Part shown: positions 2,410 through 12,790 of the stretch, piece by piece
How the letters are laid out: each line of letters begins with the position of its first letter
Position numbering within the stretch: position 1 is the first letter of the stretch
Source: Candidatus Hydrogenedentota bacterium
Lineage (GTDB): Bacteria; Hydrogenedentota; Hydrogenedentia; Hydrogenedentales; SLHB01
Direction: 5' to 3'
Assembly (NCBI GenBank): GCA_034408725.1
Contig: JAWXCN010000262.1
Span: 1-12,790, forward strand
DNA: 12,790 nucleotides
Position numbers and translations under genes: made by a program
Notes under the pieces: model-generated
The model's database searches: none
What the model was told of the DNA's origin: nothing
The model's input: the letters and a program-made list of their open reading frames with translations, nothing else

Positions 2410-5400
2410 TTACTTCGGCGCCGCCACGGGAACCGGCGCTCCCTCTATTTCGGGTTTCTTCTTGCGCACCCTCTCGGTCAACCGCTGAATGAGCACGAAG
2501 AACAGCGGTACGAACAAAACGGCCAGAAAGGTTGCCGCAAACATTCCGCCCGCGACTCCGGTTCCGATCGAATGTCGTCCACCCGCTCCCGCGCCCTGCC
2601 CAAAGACGAGCGGCATCACGCCAAGGATGAATGCGAGTGATGTCATGATAATTGGGCGCAGACGTAGTCTTGCCGCTTCGAGCGCGGCATCGACAATGCC
2701 CATGCCCTGTTCGCGCAACACCGTGCAAAACTCGACAATTAGAATCGCGTTCTTGGCCGAAAGCCCGACCAGGGTCAACAGGCCAATCTGGAAGTAGATG
2801 TCGCGGTCGATCCCGCGAAGGTACACGGCAAGTACCGCGCCGAGCGAACCAAACGGCACCGCCATCAACACCGCGAAAGGCAATGACCATTTTTCGTACT
2901 GAGCCGCCAGCACAAGAAATACGATCGTCAGACCAAACATGATAATAAACGGCGCCTGGCTCCCCGCGCTTTCCTCCTGATACGACACGCCACTCAAGCC
3001 AACACCATAGCCCGCCGGCAATGTGGCCAGGGCAAGTTCATTGATCCGTTCTATGTTCTGGCCCGTGCTGAACCCTGGAGACGGCGCTCCCGTGATTTGA
3101 ACTGCGGGGTAACTGTTGAAACGGCTGACGACGTTCGGGCCGGATTGAAAATGCATACTGAGCACACCGGACAACTCGACCATGTCCCCAGTATCATTTC
3201 GCACAAAAATTTTACGGATGTCGTCGGGGGTTGCGCGAAACTGCGGTTCTGCCTGAAGCTGCACCCGGTAGATACGGCCATATTTGTTGAAATCATTCAC
3301 ATACAAGGAGCCAAGATACGCTTGCAAGCTGTCGAAAATGGTGTTCAAGGGTACGCCCAAGGCCTTGGCCCGCGTGCGGTCGACGTCAACGAATAGCTGC
3401 GGCTGCGTCATTGTGAGCACGCTCGATACGCCAGTGAACATCGGGTCTTCACTCATTTTCTGAATGAACGCATCCGAAGTTTCGGCAAGCTCTCGAATGT
3501 CGGTTACTCCACGGCCTTCGAGCTGCACTTCAAATCCGGCGCGAACGCCGAGACCTCGAATCGCGGGCGGATTAAACGCAAGTACCGTTGCTTCTTTTAG
3601 ATTGGCAAATGCGCCAAAAACGCGGTCAACCATCGCGTTGGCGTCGCTGTCCGGTCCGGTGCGCTCGGACCAGTCCGTCAGGTTCACGAACATAGCCCCC
3701 GCGCTTGTGCTGGCCGAACGGCCCGCCAGAAAGTCCTGCCCCCCTAGCGTGACTACACGCTTCACCTCCGGCTGCTTCATCAGATAGTCTTCGATGTCTT
3801 TCATCACGGCGCTGGTGCGCTCGAGCGAAGCGCCCTGGGGCAACTGCGTCGCGACCATGAAATATCCCTGGTCTTCGGAAGGAATGAATGCGCTCGGGAC
3901 CTTTTGAAACAACCCGTAAGTCGCCCACAGCAGCGCGGCGAAGACAAGGAGTGACACCACGGAGAACCGGATAATTTGCCGCACGGCGCCGGTATACGCG
4001 CGCGTCGCGCGGGTAAACAGGTTGTCAAACCACCGGAAAATAAAAATCTTCTCGTGCGAGGGTTTCAGTAATATGCGGCACATCGCCGGTGTCAGCGTCA
4101 ACGCCACCAGTCCGGAGATAGCCACCGACAGGGCAATGGTCACGCCAAACTGCCGGTACATGACACCTGTAAGGCCGCCCAAAAACGCGACCGGTAAATA
4201 CACCGCGCTCAGCACCAGCACAATCGTGATAACAGGGCCAGAAACCTGTTCCATCGCCTTGATAGTGGCGTCCCGTACGCCCAGCTTTTCCTCGTGCATG
4301 ATTCGCTCGACGTTTTCGACGACGACGATCGCGTCGTCCACCACGATGCCAATGGCAAGTACAAGACCGAACAAGGTCAAGGTGTTGATCGAGAATCCAA
4401 AAACGAGCATTCCGGTGAACGTCCCAATGATTGCCACCGGAATCGCCAGCAAAGGAATCAAGGTCGCCCGCCAACTTCCCAGAAACATAAACACCACCAA
4501 CACCACAAGAATGATGGCCTCAACGAAGGTCTTCACAACCTCTTCAATGGAGACCCGCACAAACTGGGTCGTGTTGAAGGGAATGTCGTAACTCACGCCT
4601 TCCGGAAAGCTGAGTTTGAGCGTTCCGAGCGCCTCTTCCAATCCATCCATTGTGGCGAGTGTGTTGGCGCCGGGTTGCAGAAAAATGAGGACGAACGTAG
4701 TTTGCTTTCCATTGAGCCGTCCAAAGGAATCGTAACTAAATGCGCCAAGTTCGACACGGCCCACGTCCCGGAGTTTCAACATAGAACCATCCGGGTCGGA
4801 GCGCAGAATAATGTCCTCGAATTGTTCGGGTTCATCAAGCCGGCCCCGCGTAATCACTGGAATCGTGAATTCTACCGGCGTGGTATTGGGCGGCGCGCCA
4901 ATGCGACCCGCCGCGTACAAGCCATTCTCCTCGTTGATGGCCTGGGAAACGTCTGAAACCGTCAAGCCTTTTGCGGCCATCTTGTCGGGGTTCAACCAGA
5001 TGCGCATCGAGTAGTCTTTCGATCCGAATACCATGGCGTCGCCAACACCAGATACGCGCTTGATCGCGTCAATCATGTAGATATTCGCGTAGTTGCTGAG
5101 GTGCAGGTCCGTGAATGTGGGGTCCGTTGAATTCAAGGCAACCACGCCCAGGATATTGTTTGATCGCTTGTTCACCGCGATGCCTTGCCGTATGACTTCC
5201 TGGGGCAGGCGTGGCTCCGCACGTTTTAACCGGTTCTGAACTTCGACCGCGGCGATATCAAGATCGGACCCGATTTCGAATGTGAGCGTGATCGAAAGGC
5301 TCCCGTCATTCGAGCTCTGCGATTGGTAGTAGAGCAAGTTCTCAATTCCACTTAGCTCCTGCTCAATTGGAACGGCAAGCGAATCGGCGACGACTTCCGC

Positions 5401-6752: not shown

Positions 6753-8471
6753 CTATTCCGGCCTGTCGAGGGCAGCGGTTTCATCATTAGGAATTTCAAA
6801 CGATTCCCAGCCACCACCCAGCGCTTTGTACAGCGCCACCAAATTGAGCAACACCGTCGTCTGGCTTTGCACCTGTTGATCCTGTGCGGTATATAGCGCC
6901 CGCTGAGCATCCAGCACGTTCAGGAAATCGCTTAATCCGGTTATGTACCGTTCATTGGCGAGCGTTACAGCCTGCCGTTCCGCTCCAACTGCCTGCCCCA
7001 GGAGGGAAAACCGCTGCTGTTCTTTTGCGTATGCAACCAGACTGTTCTCCACGTCTTCGAGCGATTCTTTTACTGTTCGCTCGTACAGGAACACCGCCTG
7101 CTCCTGCCGCGAATTTTGCACGTCGATGTTCGCGCGGATGCGTCCGGCATCAAAGACTGGCCAGCTTACCGTCGGTCCAAATCCCCAAAACCGGCTCGTG
7201 CCCAACACCAGATCGCCGGCGTTGCTGTTTTGAAAACCGAAATTGCCCGTCAGCGAAAACTTGGGGAACAGATCGGCCATTGCTTCGCCAATGCGCGCTG
7301 TCGCGCCGGCGAGCTCCCGCTCTGCACGCCGGACGTCGGCACGACGCCGAAGGAGATCAGATGGCATGCCTACCGGAACCGACGGTGGAGTAGGGGGGAG
7401 CGGTTGCCCTAGCACAAGCTCGTCGAACAAACTGGCAGGGTTCTGGCCCAACAACACGCTCAGCCGATGAATCGCCGAATAGACAATCGTTTCAAATGCG
7501 GGTATCTGAGACTGCGTGGTTGCCAGTTGGGCTTCCGCGCGCAGGGCGTCCGAGGCATTCGTCAGGCCCGCGTCGTATCGCGCGCGCGTAATGTTCACGG
7601 AATTTTGTTGCGCCTCAATATTTTCGTTCGCGATCCGTAGCCGCGCCTGTGCCTCACGCAGCGTCAGATAATTGCGGGCCACTTCCGCGAGCAGCGATAC
7701 CAGGACGTCCCGGCGGCCTTCTTCTTCCGCGCTGATGTCCGCCGTGGCCGCTTCCACCGCGCGCCGGTTCCCTCCAAAAACGTCCAGTTCCCACGACGCG
7801 TCGAACCCGGCCTGATAAAAATCCTGCGTGCGCTCGAACGAAGGGCTATTGTTTGGCGAAAACGAAAGGTTGGCGCTGTTGGAAGGGAGCAGCGCGCTGC
7901 CAATACTTTGGGTACCGCCCTGTTGACCAAGTAAAAGCGAACCAAGACGTGTAAACGCGCTCGTGCCTGTCGCGGTAAAGTCGCCTGAACGAAGGGTCGC
8001 CGTGCGCGAAAACGATTGCGAATTTGTGGACCCGCTCAAACTCAGGGACGTATTATCTATCGAATCCGGCGCCGGTGATTCGCTTCGCTGATAGGACGCC
8101 CGCGCATTCAGTTGTGGATACAGGTCCGCGGCGACGATACCCCGCGCCGCGCGCGCTTCGCGCACGCGCGCCTCGGCAATGCGCAAGTCGTAGTTTGTTT
8201 CGGCCGCTTCTGCAACGAGATTGTTCAAAGTAGCGTCGCCAAAGACTTCCCACCACTGCGTCAACGCCGCGGGGGTGTCCTGTTCACCGCCGGCCATGGG
8301 CGCATGCCATCGGCCCGGCAACCCAGGCGCTGGCGGGGTGTAGTCTGGCCCGACCGCACACCCAGCAATTAGCAATGCGATTGTAGCCAGAAAAACGCGG
8401 CTTACGATGCGAGCATGCAGCCGATCATCGCTGCTCATTTGATTTCCAAAAACCATGAGGTCCATCCGCAA
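6753..8471 (-). CDS. Outer-membrane efflux channel lipoprotein (NodT/OprM/TolC family); start codon uncertain
   Basis: Lipobox LIAG-C followed by AVGPDY, plus WWEVFGD, NYDLRIA, ASWELDVFG, PSDLLRRRADVRRAE and LYKALGGGW. The track start is TTG, and in-frame ATGs follow (e.g. MSSDD). Confidence 0.95.
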   Translation of the reverse strand: MRMDLMVFGNQMSSDDRLHARIVSRVFLATIALLIAGCAVGPDYTPPAPGLPGRWHAPMAGGEQDTPAALTQWWEVFGDATLNNLVAEAAETNYDLRIAEARVREARAARGIVAADLYPQLNARASYQRSESPAPDSIDNTSLSLSGSTNSQSFSRTATLRSGDFTATGTSAFTRLGSLLLGQQGGTQSIGSALLPSNSANLSFSPNNSPSFERTQDFYQAGFDASWELDVFGGNRRAVEAATADISAEEEGRRDVLVSLLAEVARNYLTLREAQARLRIANENIEAQQNSVNITRARYDAGLTNASDALRAEAQLATTQSQIPAFETIVYSAIHRLSVLLGQNPASLFDELVLGQPLPPTPPSVPVGMPSDLLRRRADVRRAERELAGATARIGEAMADLFPKFSLTGNFGFQNSNAGDLVLGTSRFWGFGPTVSWPVFDAGRIRANIDVQNSRQEQAVFLYERTVKESLEDVENSLVAYAKEQQRFSLLGQAVGAERQAVTLANERYITGLSDFLNVLDAQRALYTAQDQQVQSQTTVLLNLVALYKALGGGWESFEIPNDETAALDRPE

Positions 8472-8482
8472 TCCGGTTACTG

Positions 8483-9100
8483 TTATGCGCGGTACGCCGC
8501 AATGCCCGCCAACGAGAATGCTGTGATCTGCTTCGCCAGCTTCTCGATTTCATCGTCTTCTTCCGGAAGCCCCCCATGAAGTCGTTTCAGCACATGCCCC
8601 GCATGTTTGTACACCAGACATTGGCCCAACACGCATGACGCCAGATCGTTCATGTCCTGCTCCGGAGCATCGCCCACGAGTTCGCGGAGGATGCCGATCA
8701 GCGTCTCATGCGTGGGACGAATCGCGTCCTCACAAAGCCGATCCAGCGCACCCGTCGGGCTGGCCATCTCGGCCGCCATCAATTTACCGTGAATGGCTGG
8801 CCTTCCTTTGCCCAACAACCTAAACAACAGGATGCGCACAAATCCTTCCAGATGTTCCTCCGGCGAGTCCCCCGTCAAATCAAATGGATACGCTTTCTGA
8901 ATTTGCTCGAACGATTGAAGCAGGATTGCTTCATACAGGCTTTCCTTGTCTCGAAAATGGTAATTCACCGCCGCGAGATTCACATTCGCGCGGCTGCTGA
9001 TGTCCCTGATGCTTGTGTCCTGAAAGCCACGCTCGGCAAACAGTTCGCTGGCCGCATCCAGGATTCGCTCAGAAGTAGAATGTAGAGATTCGAGTGCCAT
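8483..9100 (-). CDS. TetR/AcrR family regulator with probable CecR/YbiH-type (DUF1956) C-terminal domain
   Basis: HTH region RILDAASELFAERGFQDTSIRDISSRANVNLAAVNYHFRDKESLY. The EMASPT, SCVLGQCL and FSLAGI segments resemble CecR-like C-termini. First gene of the efflux operon. Confidence 0.92.
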   Translation of the reverse strand: MALESLHSTSERILDAASELFAERGFQDTSIRDISSRANVNLAAVNYHFRDKESLYEAILLQSFEQIQKAYPFDLTGDSPEEHLEGFVRILLFRLLGKGRPAIHGKLMAAEMASPTGALDRLCEDAIRPTHETLIGILRELVGDAPEQDMNDLASCVLGQCLVYKHAGHVLKRLHGGLPEEDDEIEKLAKQITAFSLAGIAAYRA

Positions 9101-9139
9101 ACGAACGATTGAAACACCTATTTAATACGACAGTTTAAC
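9098..9139. promoter_or_regulatory. Candidate TetR operator array: three degenerate 13-bp units
   Basis: ACGAACGATTGAA (9101-9113), ACACCTATTTAAT (9114-9126) and ACGACAGTTTAAC (9127-9139) form overlapping imperfect AAAC-N4-GTTT-like dyads between the -10 box and the tetR start. Confidence 0.5.
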
Positions 9140-9161
9140 TTATTCGTTCGACTTCTGTCAA
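9132..9161 (-). promoter_or_regulatory. Sigma70-type promoter of the tetR-efflux operon
   Basis: Minus strand TTGACA (9161-9156), 18-nt spacer, TAAACT (9137-9132), about 30 nt upstream of the tetR ATG. Confidence 0.7.
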
Positions 9162-9223
9162 ATCCCGCTGCTATATATGCGTAAAGTACCGTAAATATTC
9201 GACTTGGATTCGCCAGAAATCAT

Positions 9224-9259
9224 AAAAAAGACGACCCCGAGAGAAAATTCTCGGGGTCG
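9224..9259 (-). terminator. Rho-independent terminator of the acidic lipoprotein gene
   Basis: Perfect 11-bp stem CGACCCCGAGA (9232-9242) / TCTCGGGGTCG (9249-9259) with a 6-nt loop, followed on the minus strand by TCTTTTTT. Lies 50 nt after the stop at 9310. Confidence 0.85.
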
Positions 9260-9309
9260 GCGACCTGGTGTTTCGATATTCGAGGGTAAGGTTGGCGGAG
9301 CCCTAAACC

Positions 9310-10341
9310 CTAGTCATCATTTTCGTCGTCGTCGTCGTCGTCATCATCGTCATCATCATCGTCGTCGTCATCATCATCGTCATCATCATCATCGTGATCG
9401 CCGTCGTCATTGTCCCCGTCGTCGTGATCGCCATCGTTGTCGTCGTCGTGGTCGTCAAAGTCATCGTCATCTTCATCGCAGTTATACGCGACAAATTGTA
9501 CGGTGTCCGCCATAAGAACAAGGTCGTCATCATCAAGGATCAGAATGCCTGTCACGTATACGCAGGCGTCTTCTTCCAAATCTTCGGGCGTTCCTACGAC
9601 AGGCTCACCACCCTCGACATCGGGCGGCAGCAGGATCAGCGCTTCTGCGAAGTCAACTTCGATCTCGCTGTCGCCGATTTCCATCTCAAATTCGGACTCG
9701 TCAAGCTCGACGTCATCAATCGAACCCGACGTCTCAACATCTCCAATCACGAAGTCCGGGTCGCCGTCGTCAGTGTCATCGGGATCATCAATATTGGCTT
9801 CAAGTTCAAAATCTGCTTCGAGCAAAAGCGATTCATCCGCAAGCACAAGAATCTCAATATCGTCGAGTTCAAGCTTCAGAACGCCATGGCCATCAGCCAG
9901 AATCTCGAATTCCGCTTCCACCGTGTACTCACCGCCGAATGGCAACGCCACCGGAACGAGAACACCGGGGTTGTCAGCATTTTCAACTTCCGCGGTGGTG
10001 AGTACCAACGTGCCGCCGACATACACCCCAGCGGGAATGTCCGCGGCCGCGAGTATCGATGCCGCGGCGTCATCTGAAAGCAGGTCCACCTCAATTGGCG
10101 CAGGAAGCACTGGAACCAGGGAACCGTCCTCCTGCTCCAGCGTAATGCTTCCGACGGTCACAAACAGCGCGGCTAGCGTATCGCCGCCCTTTGACGATGC
10201 CAGATTCCCTGAGAGCATCACGGCGACTTTTCCGACCTCGGAAGCCGGAACAAGTCGCGGACAACCGCTTAAGGAAATCGCTACGGACGCTGTCGCGAAC
10301 ATGATTAGTAGAGTACGGAACACAAGCATCGCTCGGTGCAT
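9310..10341 (-). CDS. Highly acidic lipoprotein with DUF4382-like and DUF5666-like domains and a poly-Asp tail (343 aa)
   Basis: Start revised from the track's TTG at 10371 to ATG at 10341, which has AGGAGG 7 nt upstream. Signal peptide ends in lipobox LSG-C. VTVGSITL...EVDLL...DIPAGVY resembles DUF4382, and SGSIDDV...IEVD...EDLEEDACVYVTG...ADTVQF resembles DUF5666 (by eye). Confidence 0.8.
   Translation of the reverse strand: MHRAMLVFRTLLIMFATASVAISLSGCPRLVPASEVGKVAVMLSGNLASSKGGDTLAALFVTVGSITLEQEDGSLVPVLPAPIEVDLLSDDAAASILAAADIPAGVYVGGTLVLTTAEVENADNPGVLVPVALPFGGEYTVEAEFEILADGHGVLKLELDDIEILVLADESLLLEADFELEANIDDPDDTDDGDPDFVIGDVETSGSIDDVELDESEFEMEIGDSEIEVDFAEALILLPPDVEGGEPVVGTPEDLEEDACVYVTGILILDDDDLVLMADTVQFVAYNCDEDDDDFDDHDDDNDGDHDDGDNDDGDHDDDDDDDDDDDDDDDDDDDDDDDENDD
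9313..9477 (-). repeat. Coding GAT/GAC low-complexity repeat (55-aa Asp-rich tail)
   Basis: 23 consecutive Asp codons at 9325-9393. Segments 9331-9360 and 9361-9390 are 29/30 identical. DGDH units precede the run. Confidence 0.95.
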
Positions 10342-10428
10342 ACCAACCCCTCCTCTTTCGTACTGACTCAACTGAAACGTTTTACTTATATTGCCAGAGC
10401 GCCATCTTGCCGCTTAGCAATGGTCGAA

Positions 10429-10457
10429 ATACTATCATTTTCTTGCGGTATTTACAA
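10429..10457 (-). promoter_or_regulatory. Candidate sigma70 promoter of the acidic lipoprotein gene
   Basis: Minus strand TTGTAA (10457-10452), 17-nt spacer, TAGTAT (10434-10429) preceded by TGn (extended -10). An AT-rich tract lies upstream. Confidence 0.5.
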
Positions 10458-10538
10458 GATAATCAGGATATTCAATATTAAATTGTCATTTATTATTTAC
10501 TTTATGTGGCTTTTCAATGCTCAAAGCCGTTACCACAG

Positions 10539-10553
10539 CAGACAGACTGTCTG
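10539..10553. promoter_or_regulatory. Perfect 7-1-7 palindrome, possible protein-binding site
   Basis: CAGACAG-A-CTGTCTG in the intergenic region. Confidence 0.35.
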
Positions 10554-10576
10554 GATATGCCAAGGGGGGCCTTACA

Positions 10577-10705
10577 CTAATACTCGCTTTGCTCGAGATT
10601 TCTCAGTCCAAGCCGCATTGGTATAAAGGTTGTGGTCGCGCTCAGTGCTGCCATCCCGGACACCACCACGACAAGCGTTGCGTAGAAGTGCGTCGGGGTG
10701 GCATA
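10577..10705 (-). pseudogene. Orphan second copy of the 3' end of the permease gene (gene fragment, or a possible 55-aa small ORF at 10577-10744)
   Basis: Encodes YATPTHFYATLVVVVSGMAALSATTTFIPMRLGLRNLEQSEY*, versus YRSPSHFHATLVLVVAGMAVLSAVTTFLPMRLGLRNLDQSEY* at 12070-12198. 32/42 residues are identical, the alignment is ungapped, and the stop is at the same position. Confidence 0.85.
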
Positions 10706-10740
10706 CAGTTCTAGGAGTTTGTTCGGCGCGCCCCGCCATG

Positions 10741-11985
10741 TCACGGGAACGCCAAATTTTTCGGTGGAAACGTACCTATTGGCAACAACTCGATGTTGTT
10801 TCCGTGTTGCTGCCACCAATCCGACAGATGGGCCCTTAGCTTCTCGACAAATTTTGGAAATCTCGGGTCAATCGCGTCGCCAGGCCGCCCAGGTTGTGAA
10901 ATGCCGCTCGCCGCAGCGCTGTTGGACAGCATAGTCTCTACGCAGTCGCTGTAGGACACGGGTCCGGTGTTCGGGTCGTGCCGGTGTCCAACGAATGAAA
11001 TGGCAGTGATGGCACGAGGGACACGCGCGCGGTCGTTATAACTTGCGAGAATGAAGTTTGCCCACTCCGCGACATCTCCATCGCCTCGCGCAATCTCCGC
11101 TAGCGTTCTTCTCGCCTTCCGATTCTCTTCAACGAGAGCATGTGCTCCGCCAACAAGACACACTAATGGCTCGCGCGCATCCATTAGCTCCAGCGCCACT
11201 CTGTTTCGCTTCGCTACGGGGCATCCCCACAGCATAACTTTCGCCGCGCCCGCCAATTCAGAAGGCCAGCGAAACCCCAATTCTGAAGACTTGACTCTTG
11301 ACAGCTGCCTTGCCACAAACAATGAATCGGTATAAGACAACCGTTGTATTGCATGCAACCAGCCGGAAAACGCTTCGGCCTCGGCAACACTGCGAGATTC
11401 TCTGAGTCGAGCTTGCAGACTTTCTCTTTCCCCGGGCGCGAGCGGCTCCGGGGTTACTCCGACCAATGGTAATGCGTACTGTCGGTTCGTGTGTGGCAAG
11501 GAATCAACGGCTTGCCGAAGATCATCCAGATTGCCTCCAAACCCGGGGAACGCGTGCCGAAGCGAATCGGAATAAATTTCAGGCACCCGCACCCATCCCC
11601 AAGCGAGATGGTAACGGTAGCCGGCGTCCGGCTCTGGAAACCACGTCTTCCCCGTCGGATCGCCGGTTCCCGGTTGTCGGACGGGGATTTCTATCTTCTG
11701 GAACAACACGCGTTGTAACGCCCCGACATAACGCTCGCCGACGCGCGCGGTGCAATGGATGGTGAACTCCTCCATCCCCGGCTGGCCTCGCCACGCTTCG
11801 ACAACTCGAAACCTGGACGAATAAATCCCGGCGCCGGTGCACTCGACGACTCCAACGAAATCAGACGCGGCGATCAATTCCTGCCATGATCCTGGCTCTA
11901 CGGACGTTGCTATCGCGTCCATTTGCACCAATAATGTAGCGACGACCGTCCAGATGCGAGCGTATCTAATAGAGAATCCAGGCAT
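10741..11985 (-). CDS. Hypothetical exported protein, 414 aa; beta-rich N-terminal domain and helical (HEAT-like) C-terminal half
   Basis: Long ORF with ATG preceded by AAGGA. Signal-peptide-like N-terminus (RYARIWTVVATLLVQMDAIA-TS), then WQELIAASDFVGVVEC, amphipathic helical repeats (ALELMDAREPLVCLVGG, TLAEIARGDGDVAEWANFIL) and LSDWWQQH near the end. No family recognised with confidence. Confidence 0.75.
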   Translation of the reverse strand: MPGFSIRYARIWTVVATLLVQMDAIATSVEPGSWQELIAASDFVGVVECTGAGIYSSRFRVVEAWRGQPGMEEFTIHCTARVGERYVGALQRVLFQKIEIPVRQPGTGDPTGKTWFPEPDAGYRYHLAWGWVRVPEIYSDSLRHAFPGFGGNLDDLRQAVDSLPHTNRQYALPLVGVTPEPLAPGERESLQARLRESRSVAEAEAFSGWLHAIQRLSYTDSLFVARQLSRVKSSELGFRWPSELAGAAKVMLWGCPVAKRNRVALELMDAREPLVCLVGGAHALVEENRKARRTLAEIARGDGDVAEWANFILASYNDRARVPRAITAISFVGHRHDPNTGPVSYSDCVETMLSNSAAASGISQPGRPGDAIDPRFPKFVEKLRAHLSDWWQQHGNNIELLPIGTFPPKNLAFP

Positions 11986-12069
11986 GCTGTAAATCCTTTG
12001 CCAAATTCCACGTGAACAACGTAATCATCAGGAAATAATGCCACCCCCTACCTATAGTTGGCGGAGTCG

Positions 12070-12790
12070 TTAATATTCACTCTGGTCAAGGTTGCGAAGA
12101 CCCAGCCGCATCGGAAGGAATGTCGTGACCGCGCTAAGCACGGCCATCCCTGCGACAACGAGAACCAGCGTCGCATGGAAGTGCGAAGGAGACCGATATA
12201 CGCCCAACACTTCGGTCACCATCATGGTTGTCTGCGCGGCGATGATGAGTGTGATGTACCCCATGCTCAGCAGAAAGTTGAGCGTCCCACCCATGCCCGA
12301 AACGATGCGCGCAGGGTTGTCCTCCTGAAAATTTGGGTATAGGCTTCCCAGTCCTACAGATAAGCCGGACAGACCAAAATTCGTTATCACGATGCTATAG
12401 AGTGAAAGAGCGAAGAATATCGCATCAACCTCAAGCATGTAACAAGAGAGAAGCACAAGCGTGATCGTGAACGCGGATGTACTGCTGACACTCAACCAGA
12501 ATTTTTGCCAGATCAATTGCCGGTACGTAAGCGGTGCGAGACCGATCACCCAGAAACGTCGCCCTTCCAGACTGATTAGCGGAAATATAAACCGGCTTGT
12601 GAGTGTGGCAAGAATCAACGTGCAGGCGCCAATGTTCAGACACACGATCCAGGTGCGCCAGAACGCGGATTCCATTGCGACCGGCCGATCGCGAAGGCTC
12701 GCAATGTATACCGCCATGATGCCAAAGAAGATGACGAACTGAGACCATTGCGCGGGGTCGCGCCAAAACAGCTTGATGTCCTTCGTAACC
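12070..12790 (-). CDS. Putative ABC transporter permease subunit (ABC-2-like; resembles Pfam ABC_tran_2), C-terminal part; begins beyond the right edge
   Basis: The frame is open to the window edge (VTKDIKLFWRDPAQWSQFVIFFGIMAVY...), so the track's Met at 12717 is internal. Multiple TM segments and motifs KDxxxFxRD, FPLISLEGRRFW, APL...QKFW and GLGSLYPNFQEDNP. Confidence 0.8.
   Translation of the reverse strand, partial: VTKDIKLFWRDPAQWSQFVIFFGIMAVYIASLRDRPVAMESAFWRTWIVCLNIGACTLILATLTSRFIFPLISLEGRRFWVIGLAPLTYRQLIWQKFWLSVSSTSAFTITLVLLSCYMLEVDAIFFALSLYSIVITNFGLSGLSVGLGSLYPNFQEDNPARIVSGMGGTLNFLLSMGYITLIIAAQTTMMVTEVLGVYRSPSHFHATLVLVVAGMAVLSAVTTFLPMRLGLRNLDQSEY

Follow-up and report, generated by a model that had tools for sequence, protein, structure and literature searches.

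The DNA described here is a 12,790-bp window, the whole of contig C262 (JAWXCN010000262.1) of a metagenome-assembled genome (MAG; assembly GCA_034408725.1, G000 below) of a Candidatus Hydrogenedentota bacterium, which comprises 280 contigs and 5.17 Mb and is 92% complete. Its minus strand carries the 3' part of an ABC transporter permease gene and, beyond an accessory gene, a second, orphaned copy of that permease's 3' end. Our data give good support to an integrase-free displacement of a gene terminus in a housekeeping transporter, recurrent across one genome and marked by a length regularity that is so far unexplained. We propose, as somewhat better than an even bet, that the orphan is the scar of one homologous and one illegitimate joint between two related haplotypes, in the manner of homology-facilitated illegitimate recombination (HFIR), and that no defined cassette took part. 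Textbook cases of orphaned gene ends come from toxin loci and from the insertion sites of prophages, and are explained by strong diversifying selection or by an integrase. Here one uncultured mat bacterium shows the same footprint in an ordinary transporter gene and again in at least seven further genes of housekeeping type, with no mobility genes.

Read along the minus strand, the locus begins with the 3' 239 codons of the resident permease (12070..12789; the contig ends inside the gene; Pfam PF16949 matches with E 1.5e-77 over profile positions 304-541 of 542). An 84-nt spacer (11986..12069) leads from the permease stop to the start of an accessory gene for a 414-aa protein, here cargo414 (10741..11985). 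About 20 nt (10721..10740) then separate the TGA of cargo414 from the first recognisably homologous codon of the orphan permease end (10577..10720), which consists of 47 codons and a TAG and lacks the 517 codons upstream. A 205-nt spacer (10372..10576) follows, and then a second accessory gene, for an acidic 353-aa protein (9310..10371).

The two permease ends and their origin

The resident end (12070-12198) and the orphan (10577-10705) align without gaps on the minus strand, 1493 bp apart, with 87 of 129 nucleotides identical. They share 32 of 42 residues (33 of 43 when the stop is counted), end in TAA and TAG, respectively, and have no identical run longer than 8 nt, while their mismatches fall 9/3/30 on the first, second and third codon positions. 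All of the figures given in the preliminary description were reproduced. Among the 30 conserved residues other than Met and Trp, the codon differs in 21 and is the same in 9. A tblastn search lengthens the protein match to 47-48 residues (10580-10720/10723; E 1.3e-15 and 8.5e-16), and the homologous part of the resident gene, by alignment and tblastn, is 12070..12213 (47 codons and TAA). Over these 47 codons there are 50 differences, distributed 13/4/33 by position (binomial P for at least 33 third-position differences, 2.4e-6); dN amounts to 0.19, and dS is saturated and too high for the Nei-Gojobori correction. Past about 10720, in the upstream direction, the sequences agree no more than by chance (10/30, 20/60 and 34/150 nt). 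The third-position bias, the saturated dS and the dN of 0.19 therefore indicate that both ends evolved as working gene ends in separate lineages, so that the earlier proposal of two functional protein ends stood up to the dN/dS calculation. Since the orphan has no internal stop and no frameshift, its displacement would be recent relative to the divergence of the ends. Pfam gives no score to either bare 47-residue end, and the functional ends of two relatives (G003 and G001) likewise score nothing.

On the evidence of sequence, the orphan appears to be derived from a working permease gene of a close relative within the same genus-level clade. It is 76% identical to the resident end and at most 62% identical to the ends of six relatives, which over the same 42 codons are 38-60% identical among themselves and with the resident. 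The two ends are thus orthologous transmembrane tails of PF16949 rather than variable toxic C-termini. In a tree of the 47-residue ends of 19 relatives and both copies, of the kind that the preliminary description had suggested, the resident, the orphan and G003 form one clade (support 92/90), nested in the genus group (91/91) with both copies on short branches; with 47 columns, this tree is rough. The last ~60 residues are the fastest-evolving part of the permease in every pair compared, and sliding identity along the full permease reveals no breakpoint. The same-codon fraction is 0.30 between resident and orphan and 0.34-0.49 between species over the gene body, and synonymous sites have reached saturation in every pair of species sampled from the genus. 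The permease gene is single-copy, with one match in each of 32 of the 40 relatives searched and a second match in G000 alone, and the orphan is therefore no relic of tandem paralogs, one of the explanations that the preliminary description had allowed for.

The arrangement is physically linked and is not an assembly artefact. We compared per-run contigs (Logan) of four public runs, X1 to X4, with the window over 8400-12790. Possible source samples among these are X1 and X2; a contig of 3427 nt from X1 and one of 5389 nt from X2 span 9409-12790 with 0 differences. X3, from a different sample, has a 495-nt contig over 10305-10799 that crosses both orphan edges and a 1598-nt contig over 11325-12790, each with 0 differences, and X4 contigs cover parts of the region only. 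Two JGI contigs, L056 and L057, are 100% identical to the window over 3974 and 9073 nt. All of the confirming contigs are short-read assemblies, made by three pipelines, and the sequence at the junction is unique. Identical junctions in the per-run contigs of the four runs and in the two JGI contigs thus argue against a chimera of strains, a possibility raised with the first description, and no joint that skips the cargo was found among the contigs of the four runs placed at 85% likeness. One short X4 contig matches the permease end from 12083 up and then has 17 unmatched letters on the stop-codon side; it could be a variant downstream junction.

L057 also bridges C262 to contig C150. In it the permease is complete (564 aa; PF16949, E 2.3e-136; ABC permease) and is preceded by an ABC ATPase gene (PF00005) whose end overlaps the permease start. 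The break of the MAG inside the permease corresponds to 696 nt that are absent between C150 (11350) and C262 (12790) and present in L057 at 2527-3222.

Comparison with relatives places the orphan inside a longer stretch of extra DNA. In five genomes outside the genus (G009, G012, G024, G006 and G018) a UPF0047 gene directly follows the permease. In G001, G002 and G003 a block of tetR and outer membrane factor (OMF), membrane fusion protein (MFP) and RND efflux genes lies between the two; G003 has an extra ABC exporter within that block, and in G001 some 1.3 kb of tandem repeats come after the permease, with about 0.8 kb of repeats in the gap up to tetR (L026 3281-4132). Related repeat copies recur in G001 some 7.5 kb on, past the UPF0047 gene (L026 11513-12001), so that the efflux block is flanked. 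G004 has an unrelated long ORF (open reading frame) downstream of the permease. The content of the site thus differs in each of five genus members, as expected of the variable site that had been suspected from the window itself. In G003 and G002 the permease stop lies ~150 nt from tetR, and the proximal ~70 nt of that spacer are conserved at 9101-9180 of the window (z 12.2 and 6.6), a tetR promoter block (9101..9180, minus strand) with a promoter-like site at 9161-9132 (TTGACA, 18 nt, TAAACT). Because this block comes right after the permease stop in G003 and G002, 9101-9180 marks the far edge of the inserted DNA. Relative to that state, the extra DNA is ~9180-12069 (~2.9 kb) and holds two unrelated accessory genes with the orphan in the middle; with the permease stop abutting the tetR promoter in G003 and G002, the orphan therefore sits between two stacked insertions. 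Neither accessory gene was found downstream of the permease in the ten relatives' loci that were read. The 84-nt spacer has no similarity to the permease-downstream DNA of five relatives (z -1.0 to 0.2), and neither has the AT-rich 205-nt spacer (GC 0.42-0.46).

The same footprint at other genes

The preliminary description had suggested looking for the same architecture at other genes of the genome, and it recurs there. Three scans were made: the C-terminal 45 residues of each of the 7375 ORFs with 150 aa or more were searched against the genome, as were all 3802 non-overlapped ORFs at full length, and direct DNA repeats of 90-600 nt lying 0.2-30 kb apart were collected (78 pairs). We examined 22 repeats: 9 of them have a single further copy each, and 11 are members of families with 9-78 copies. 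The architecture of C262 is found at seven further pairs, four of them 3' ends and three 5' ends, which makes eight loci in a 5.2-Mb genome.

The 3' ends belong to an M42 peptidase on C110 (2317-2471 and 5069-5223; 155 nt, 95% identical), a Gfo/Idh/MocA oxidoreductase on C225 (9799-10007 and 8708-8919; 212 nt, 85%, with 160 nt before the stop and the rest through the terminator), a xylose-isomerase-like TIM-barrel protein on C182 (16266-16432 and 8775-8942; 168 nt, 96%, TAA versus TAG) and a class I/II aminotransferase on C83 (28325-28465 and 26988-27127; 141 nt, 88%). The 5' ends are those of an EEP-family protein on C142 (5589-5731 and 8657-8800; 144 nt, 83%), a PQQ-propeller protein on C46 (15716-15878 and 17108-17269; 163 nt, 76%) and a GT2 glycosyltransferase on C124 (58541-58849 and 55178-55486; 309 nt, 96%, of which 254 nt are in-gene). 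Nearly all of the differences again fall on third positions (0/1/6, 1/1/10 and 0/1/7), with dN/dS about 0.03-0.06. The C83 orphan carries a stop and a frameshift, which fits a dead remnant.

The intervening DNA ranges from one small ORF up to a 7.3-kb RND efflux operon on the opposite strand (C182), and the cargos include a VWA protein. No two of 12 cargo proteins pair in blastp at E<0.1. Recombinase families are absent from 28 chosen ORF products, of ~90 aa or more, at the seven loci. Two of the joints also hold pieces of other genes. At C225 the orphan is fused in frame to 138 nt, the first ~45 codons, of a second copy (81% identical in nucleotides) of the next gene downstream (8149-8424); the fusion is a 94-codon chimeric frame (8760-9044, minus strand; L138 1760-2044), and the joint lies on a shared 6-nt GCGGGA, as read by eye. 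The insert at C110 includes a 3' piece of an MFS gene, and the neighbouring MFS gene is related to it. At C110 the relatives' ends are equidistant from resident and orphan, and no conserved neighbourhood of the M42 peptidase is seen in six Hydrogenedentota or other MAG loci. The nearest named records to this peptidase (C110 1413-2471), L143 to L147 at 75-80% identity, are labelled Candidatus Hydrogenedentota or Hydrogenedentales, with two labelled 'uncultured Nitrospiraceae'.

In-gene lengths are 141, ~144, 155, 160 and 168 nt for the 3' orphans and 144, 163 and 254 nt for the 5' orphans, and shorter unique pairs touching ORF ends measure 35-88 nt. Counting these shorter pairs and the 254-nt orphan, the length cluster holds 7 of 11, still tighter than random joints would give. 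The lengths are near common k-mer and read sizes; since independent assemblies confirm the unique cargo-orphan junction at C262, such an effect cannot have created that junction. The outer repeat edge at each locus is a stop, a start or a terminator, and the distance from cargo stop to orphan is 20 nt at C262 and 22 nt at C83. No shared motif was found at the joints of the 3' and 5' loci. One candidate, GCGCGC, was rejected: it lies within 30 nt of the joint in three of the five 3' loci (C262 10721-10740, where the interval holds a GC-alternating stretch, C182 ~8943-8970 and C225 ~8920-8930) against 4.8% of random 30-nt windows, is found at none of the three 5' loci, and was picked out post hoc.

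Further repeats were set aside, on C13, C120, C64, C216 and C256 as non-coding, tandem or internal, on C152 because it looked like a spurious ORF, and also on C165. In 129 loci from other organisms (1.09 Mb, partly redundant) there are 31 repeat pairs, and the 5 inspected gave no clear case of an orphan end; as only about one would be expected, this carries little weight.

How the arrangement may have arisen

The history that we favour would begin with two haplotypes of one chromosomal site within the genus-level clade, permease-cargo414 and permease'-acidic353-tetR, each loaded with its own accessory gene at the variable site that separates the permease stop from the tetR promoter. DNA from one haplotype would enter a cell bearing the other and recombine homologously on one side, in the conserved permease body or in the tetR/efflux block, while an illegitimate joint would form on its other side, within one permease copy and 47 codons short of the stop. 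The cell would be left with both accessory genes, an intact permease and, from the second haplotype, a permease end of 144 nt truncated at its 5' side. Host recombination and end joining would suffice for this, and an element-encoded integrase would not be needed. We infer the two-haplotype history, the homologous anchor, the entry route and the direction of transfer. Two symmetric readings stand side by side: a permease-cargo414 fragment may have come in, anchored in the permease, or a fragment with the permease' end, acidic353 and tetR, anchored on the tetR side. The flanks of both ends, compared with the downstream DNA of five relatives, all give z -1.0 to 0.7 and favour neither reading.

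Several features of the locus bear on this proposal. The longest identical run of 8 nt is too short for a RecA crossover within the repeat, which places the homologous exchange outside it. One junction is invisible, as a homologous joint would be; the other is abrupt, within 10721-10740 and inside a conserved gene. The recurrence of the footprint with unrelated cargo and the synonymous-type differences seen again at other loci also support it, as do the coding-type, between-lineage divergence of the two ends, the origin of the orphan in a close relative, and the lack of mobility genes, tRNA genes and att-like repeats. An orphan lying between two stacked insertions is, moreover, what a merger of two differently loaded haplotypes would give. 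The trapped gene fragment and the GCGGGA joint at C225 fit the expected leftover of a linear donor (L'-X-R') that ended in a microhomology-assisted illegitimate joint.

Some observations weigh against it. Neither a donor nor a recipient haplotype was found: the 'empty' allele, with a permease ending in the orphan version, that the preliminary description had put forward as a check did not turn up, nor did an allele with a single cargo, in 40 relatives, 80 metagenome loci and the contigs of the four runs at 85% likeness. The 80 loci were taken from 140 relatives found in the metagenome scan; of these, only L056 and L057 belong to this organism, L058 is that of G003, and the one ranking after them has 65% identity. 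No homologous crossover can be detected at any locus; at C262 it is hidden by the saturation of synonymous sites among the species sampled. Random joints predict broad lengths, yet the 3' orphans, all five of them, fall within 141-168 nt, and among the three 5' orphans two have 144 and 163 nt. Finally, the seven other loci were read from the MAG alone, as the independent assemblies confirm the C262 junctions only.

HFIR, the simplest mechanism for the locus, has been proposed for orphaned 3' regions and immunity-gene arrays at type VI secretion system (T6SS) loci of Vibrio and at Rhs loci (PMC5361080). In those accounts, as in our proposal, a conserved upstream part serves as the anchor, new downstream DNA arrives by an illegitimate joint, and the old part is pushed down and kept, with no integrase involved. 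The locus studied here differs in that its host gene is an ordinary ABC permease, its two ends are orthologous and equal in function rather than alternative toxin tips, no immunity logic favours keeping the orphan, and the joint lies inside the homologous region, which gives a duplication and not a deletion. A trait expected of HFIR is present, since related lineages differ at the site (coding-type divergence, genus-level placement of the orphan, variable content), and so is one of the Rhs/CdiA/T6SS type, a 5'-truncated orphan end kept downstream of an intact gene. The downstream genes match no toxin, immunity or defence family (Pfam, NCBIfam and PADLOC). We call the locus HFIR-like, for it works in the same way, and full membership would take the donor and recipient alleles. 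Minimal mobile elements of Neisseria, in which differing cassettes without mobility genes of their own occupy one slot between conserved genes in different lineages, are another relevant case. They are exchanged by homologous recombination that is clean in each flank and, unlike the locus described here, have no orphaned gene ends left behind.

If these are scars of one-sided homologous recombination, they would form a readable record of the movement of accessory genes between close relatives in a natural community. Gene gain could then be additive, as stacked cassettes, and would preserve short stretches of a partner lineage's alleles, and such scars could be mined systematically in MAGs. In the literature that we found, which was read in part, nothing describes such scars genome-wide at non-toxin genes, which is no proof of their absence.

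A different view is that a dedicated mechanism, integrase-free or acting in trans, puts accessory genes at gene termini and duplicates ~50 terminal codons of the neighbour, which extends the gene-terminus-replacement cassette of the preliminary description to the genome at large. We consider this unlikely, and give the same low standing to the wider statement that the lineage gains accessory genes by a recurrent integrase-free process that duplicates ~47-56 terminal codons, at 3' and 5' ends, and can stack cassettes at one site. Eight loci of one architecture in a 5.2-Mb genome would be well explained in this way, as would the clustered in-gene lengths, the outer edges at a stop, start or terminator, and cargo stops 20 and 22 nt from the orphan. 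Against it, the joints have no common motif, the cargos are unrelated and vary in number, size and orientation, orphans of 35-88 nt exist, and no candidate enzyme was identified. The gene fragments trapped at C110 and C225 speak against defined element ends, and no clear case was seen in ~1.09 Mb from other organisms, though no more than about one was expected. For similar reasons we depart from the preliminary description, which suggested a new 3' end with its cargo gene as a unit: nothing marks such a unit as defined, with ends of its own, the cargos of the eight loci are unrelated in kind, number and orientation, and two joints trap gene fragments. Were such a process at work, a near-constant duplication of ~47-56 codons would call for a molecular ruler in recombination, or else for a trans-acting insertion system not yet recognised, in place of sporadic illegitimate joins. 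The ~150-nt clustering, if real, would in any case point to an undescribed constraint in the recombination machinery.

Campbell-type integration, in which a circle carrying a permease 3' fragment and the cargo enters by a single homologous crossover within the fragment, strikes us as improbable for C262. It predicts exactly the order of full gene, cargo and 5'-truncated orphan, as set out for Rhs-tip displacement by Jackson et al. (2009; PMC2935791), and most events in E. coli conjugation experiments were reported to be single crossovers duplicating 109-950 bp (PMC3240628). At C110, C182 and C124, with repeats 95-96% identical, it would be feasible. The C262 repeat, however, is 67% identical with runs of at most 8 nt, far under the need of a homologous crossover, and because its differences predate the event it was never more similar than it is now. 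Displacement of Rhs tips likewise leaves an intact gene followed by a 5'-truncated fragment with a conserved piece and the old end, but that model needs a near-identical core and a circular intermediate (PMC2935791), and C262 has neither a string of several orphans nor a toxin domain.

Phage 21, like prophage e14, integrates into icd. The locus may be the remnant of a site-specific element of this type whose integrase was deleted or acts from elsewhere, a reading to which we give a slightly lower rank still. The likeness is close, with a replacement 3' end in frame with the host gene and the displaced end on the far side, and the architecture matches that of e14 between icd and the icdC C-terminal pseudogene, where the differences are also mostly synonymous and the displaced end is a short pseudogene (PMC13626634). 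In that source, e14 is a 15-kb prophage that enters by site-specific recombination and leaves by SOS-induced excision (PMC13626634), whereas our locus has no recombinase and no shared core. Integrase, recombinase and transposase families are absent, by Pfam, from the ORFs of the window and from the 3.2 kb upstream of it in L057, and no integrase or excisionase family was found there or among the 28 proteins scanned at the seven other loci. The 5' edges of the two gene-end copies differ and hold no identical core, the 8-nt run not being at an edge, and just one or two ordinary accessory genes lie between the copies. No tRNA gene was found in the window, Rfam gave no match above threshold, and PADLOC returned nothing for the window. 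The absence of an integrase, a transposase and an identity block, noted at first from the sequence, was thus borne out. Nor was an integrase-bearing island, which would have made this an ordinary decayed island, present at this site in the 10 relatives' loci read. An integron is not suggested either: none of the 25 longest local inverted repeats, out of 58 pairs, lies at the end of the cargo as an attC-type site would, and there is no IntI integrase.

It is very improbable that C262 is a chimera of two co-occurring relatives made in assembly, or a local tandem duplicate that decayed in place. The 280 contigs of the MAG, the permease split between C150 and C262, and orphan lengths near k-mer and read lengths would be in keeping with an assembly fault, but both orphan junctions are crossed unbranched and with 0 differences in contigs of X1, X2 and X3 and in two JGI contigs. 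Decay of a local duplicate would even out the codon positions, yet 33 of 50 differences are at third positions, and there are no tandem paralogs in the 32 relatives with a match.

Least credible of all is a mobile ORF of the homing-endonuclease type with a foreign C-terminus, as described for fungal mitochondrial atp6, atp9, cox2 and nad3 (PMC3630166, which also cites an atp6 case in Allomyces): its footprint is the closest that we found, with an inserted C-terminus, an ORF and the native C-terminus, several genes affected per genome and low DNA against high protein identity (63.5% nt versus 91% aa in Glomus atp6), but there LAGLIDADG or GIY-YIG endonucleases drive the event, while no LAGLIDADG, GIY-YIG or HNH endonuclease is encoded between the two ends at C262 (Pfam and structure model), cargo414 has no nuclease Pfam family and is modelled as a beta barrel and an alpha-solenoid, and the bacterial cargos elsewhere are unrelated non-nuclease genes such as an efflux operon and a VWA protein.

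The accessory genes and the downstream block

Cargo414 matches no Pfam, NCBIfam or PADLOC family, and 12 of 13 homologs are also without a Pfam family. A search of 5.8 billion proteins gave two homologs, 45-46% identical, one of which comes from a Hydrogenedentes MAG; an exhaustive search gave 218 representatives at E<=1e-3. Weak homologs occur in 10 of 132 other genomes of the order and in none of four of the genus. The family consists mostly of proteins of 500-530 aa, which match cargo414 in two stretches around an extra middle segment. An AlphaFold2 model built from a 40-sequence alignment (pLDDT 85.2, pTM 0.85) has an N-terminal hydrophobic helix, a small beta domain (beta barrel) and a C-terminal alpha-solenoid. 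Foldseek found nothing in the PDB at E<=1e-3; among its weak matches the best are TIMP/NTR modules, for the beta domain, with armadillo/HEAT repeats matching the remainder. The modelled architecture would be a TIMP/NTR-like beta domain with a HEAT/armadillo-like solenoid behind it. We also considered cargo414 as a nuclease, homing endonuclease, integrase or transposase and set this aside, there being no matching Pfam family and no nuclease-like structural match.

The acidic 353-aa protein has a lipoprotein-like N-terminus and a long Asp-rich tail, and matches no Pfam or NCBIfam family. Its residues 1-200 have homologs in 38 of 132 other genomes of the order, none of them syntenic in the best cases; the best, at 52% identity, lies on contig C63 of G024, and the permease of that genome is on C153. 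A terminator-like hairpin with a T run (9232..9259, minus strand) follows the gene and is the sole such site downstream of the permease, cargo or orphan on the same strand. Beyond the tetR promoter comes the tetR-family regulator itself (8483..9100, minus strand), first gene of the tetR-OMF-MFP-RND block common to G001, G002 and G003, and further along lie the efflux genes, the UPF0047 gene, ybaB, fmt and rsmB. The C-terminus of the acidic protein is a run of ~60 mostly Asp codons made of GAC/GAT repeats (9310-9480), where the contigs from each of the four runs are interrupted and unrelated ones accumulate (9417-9456).

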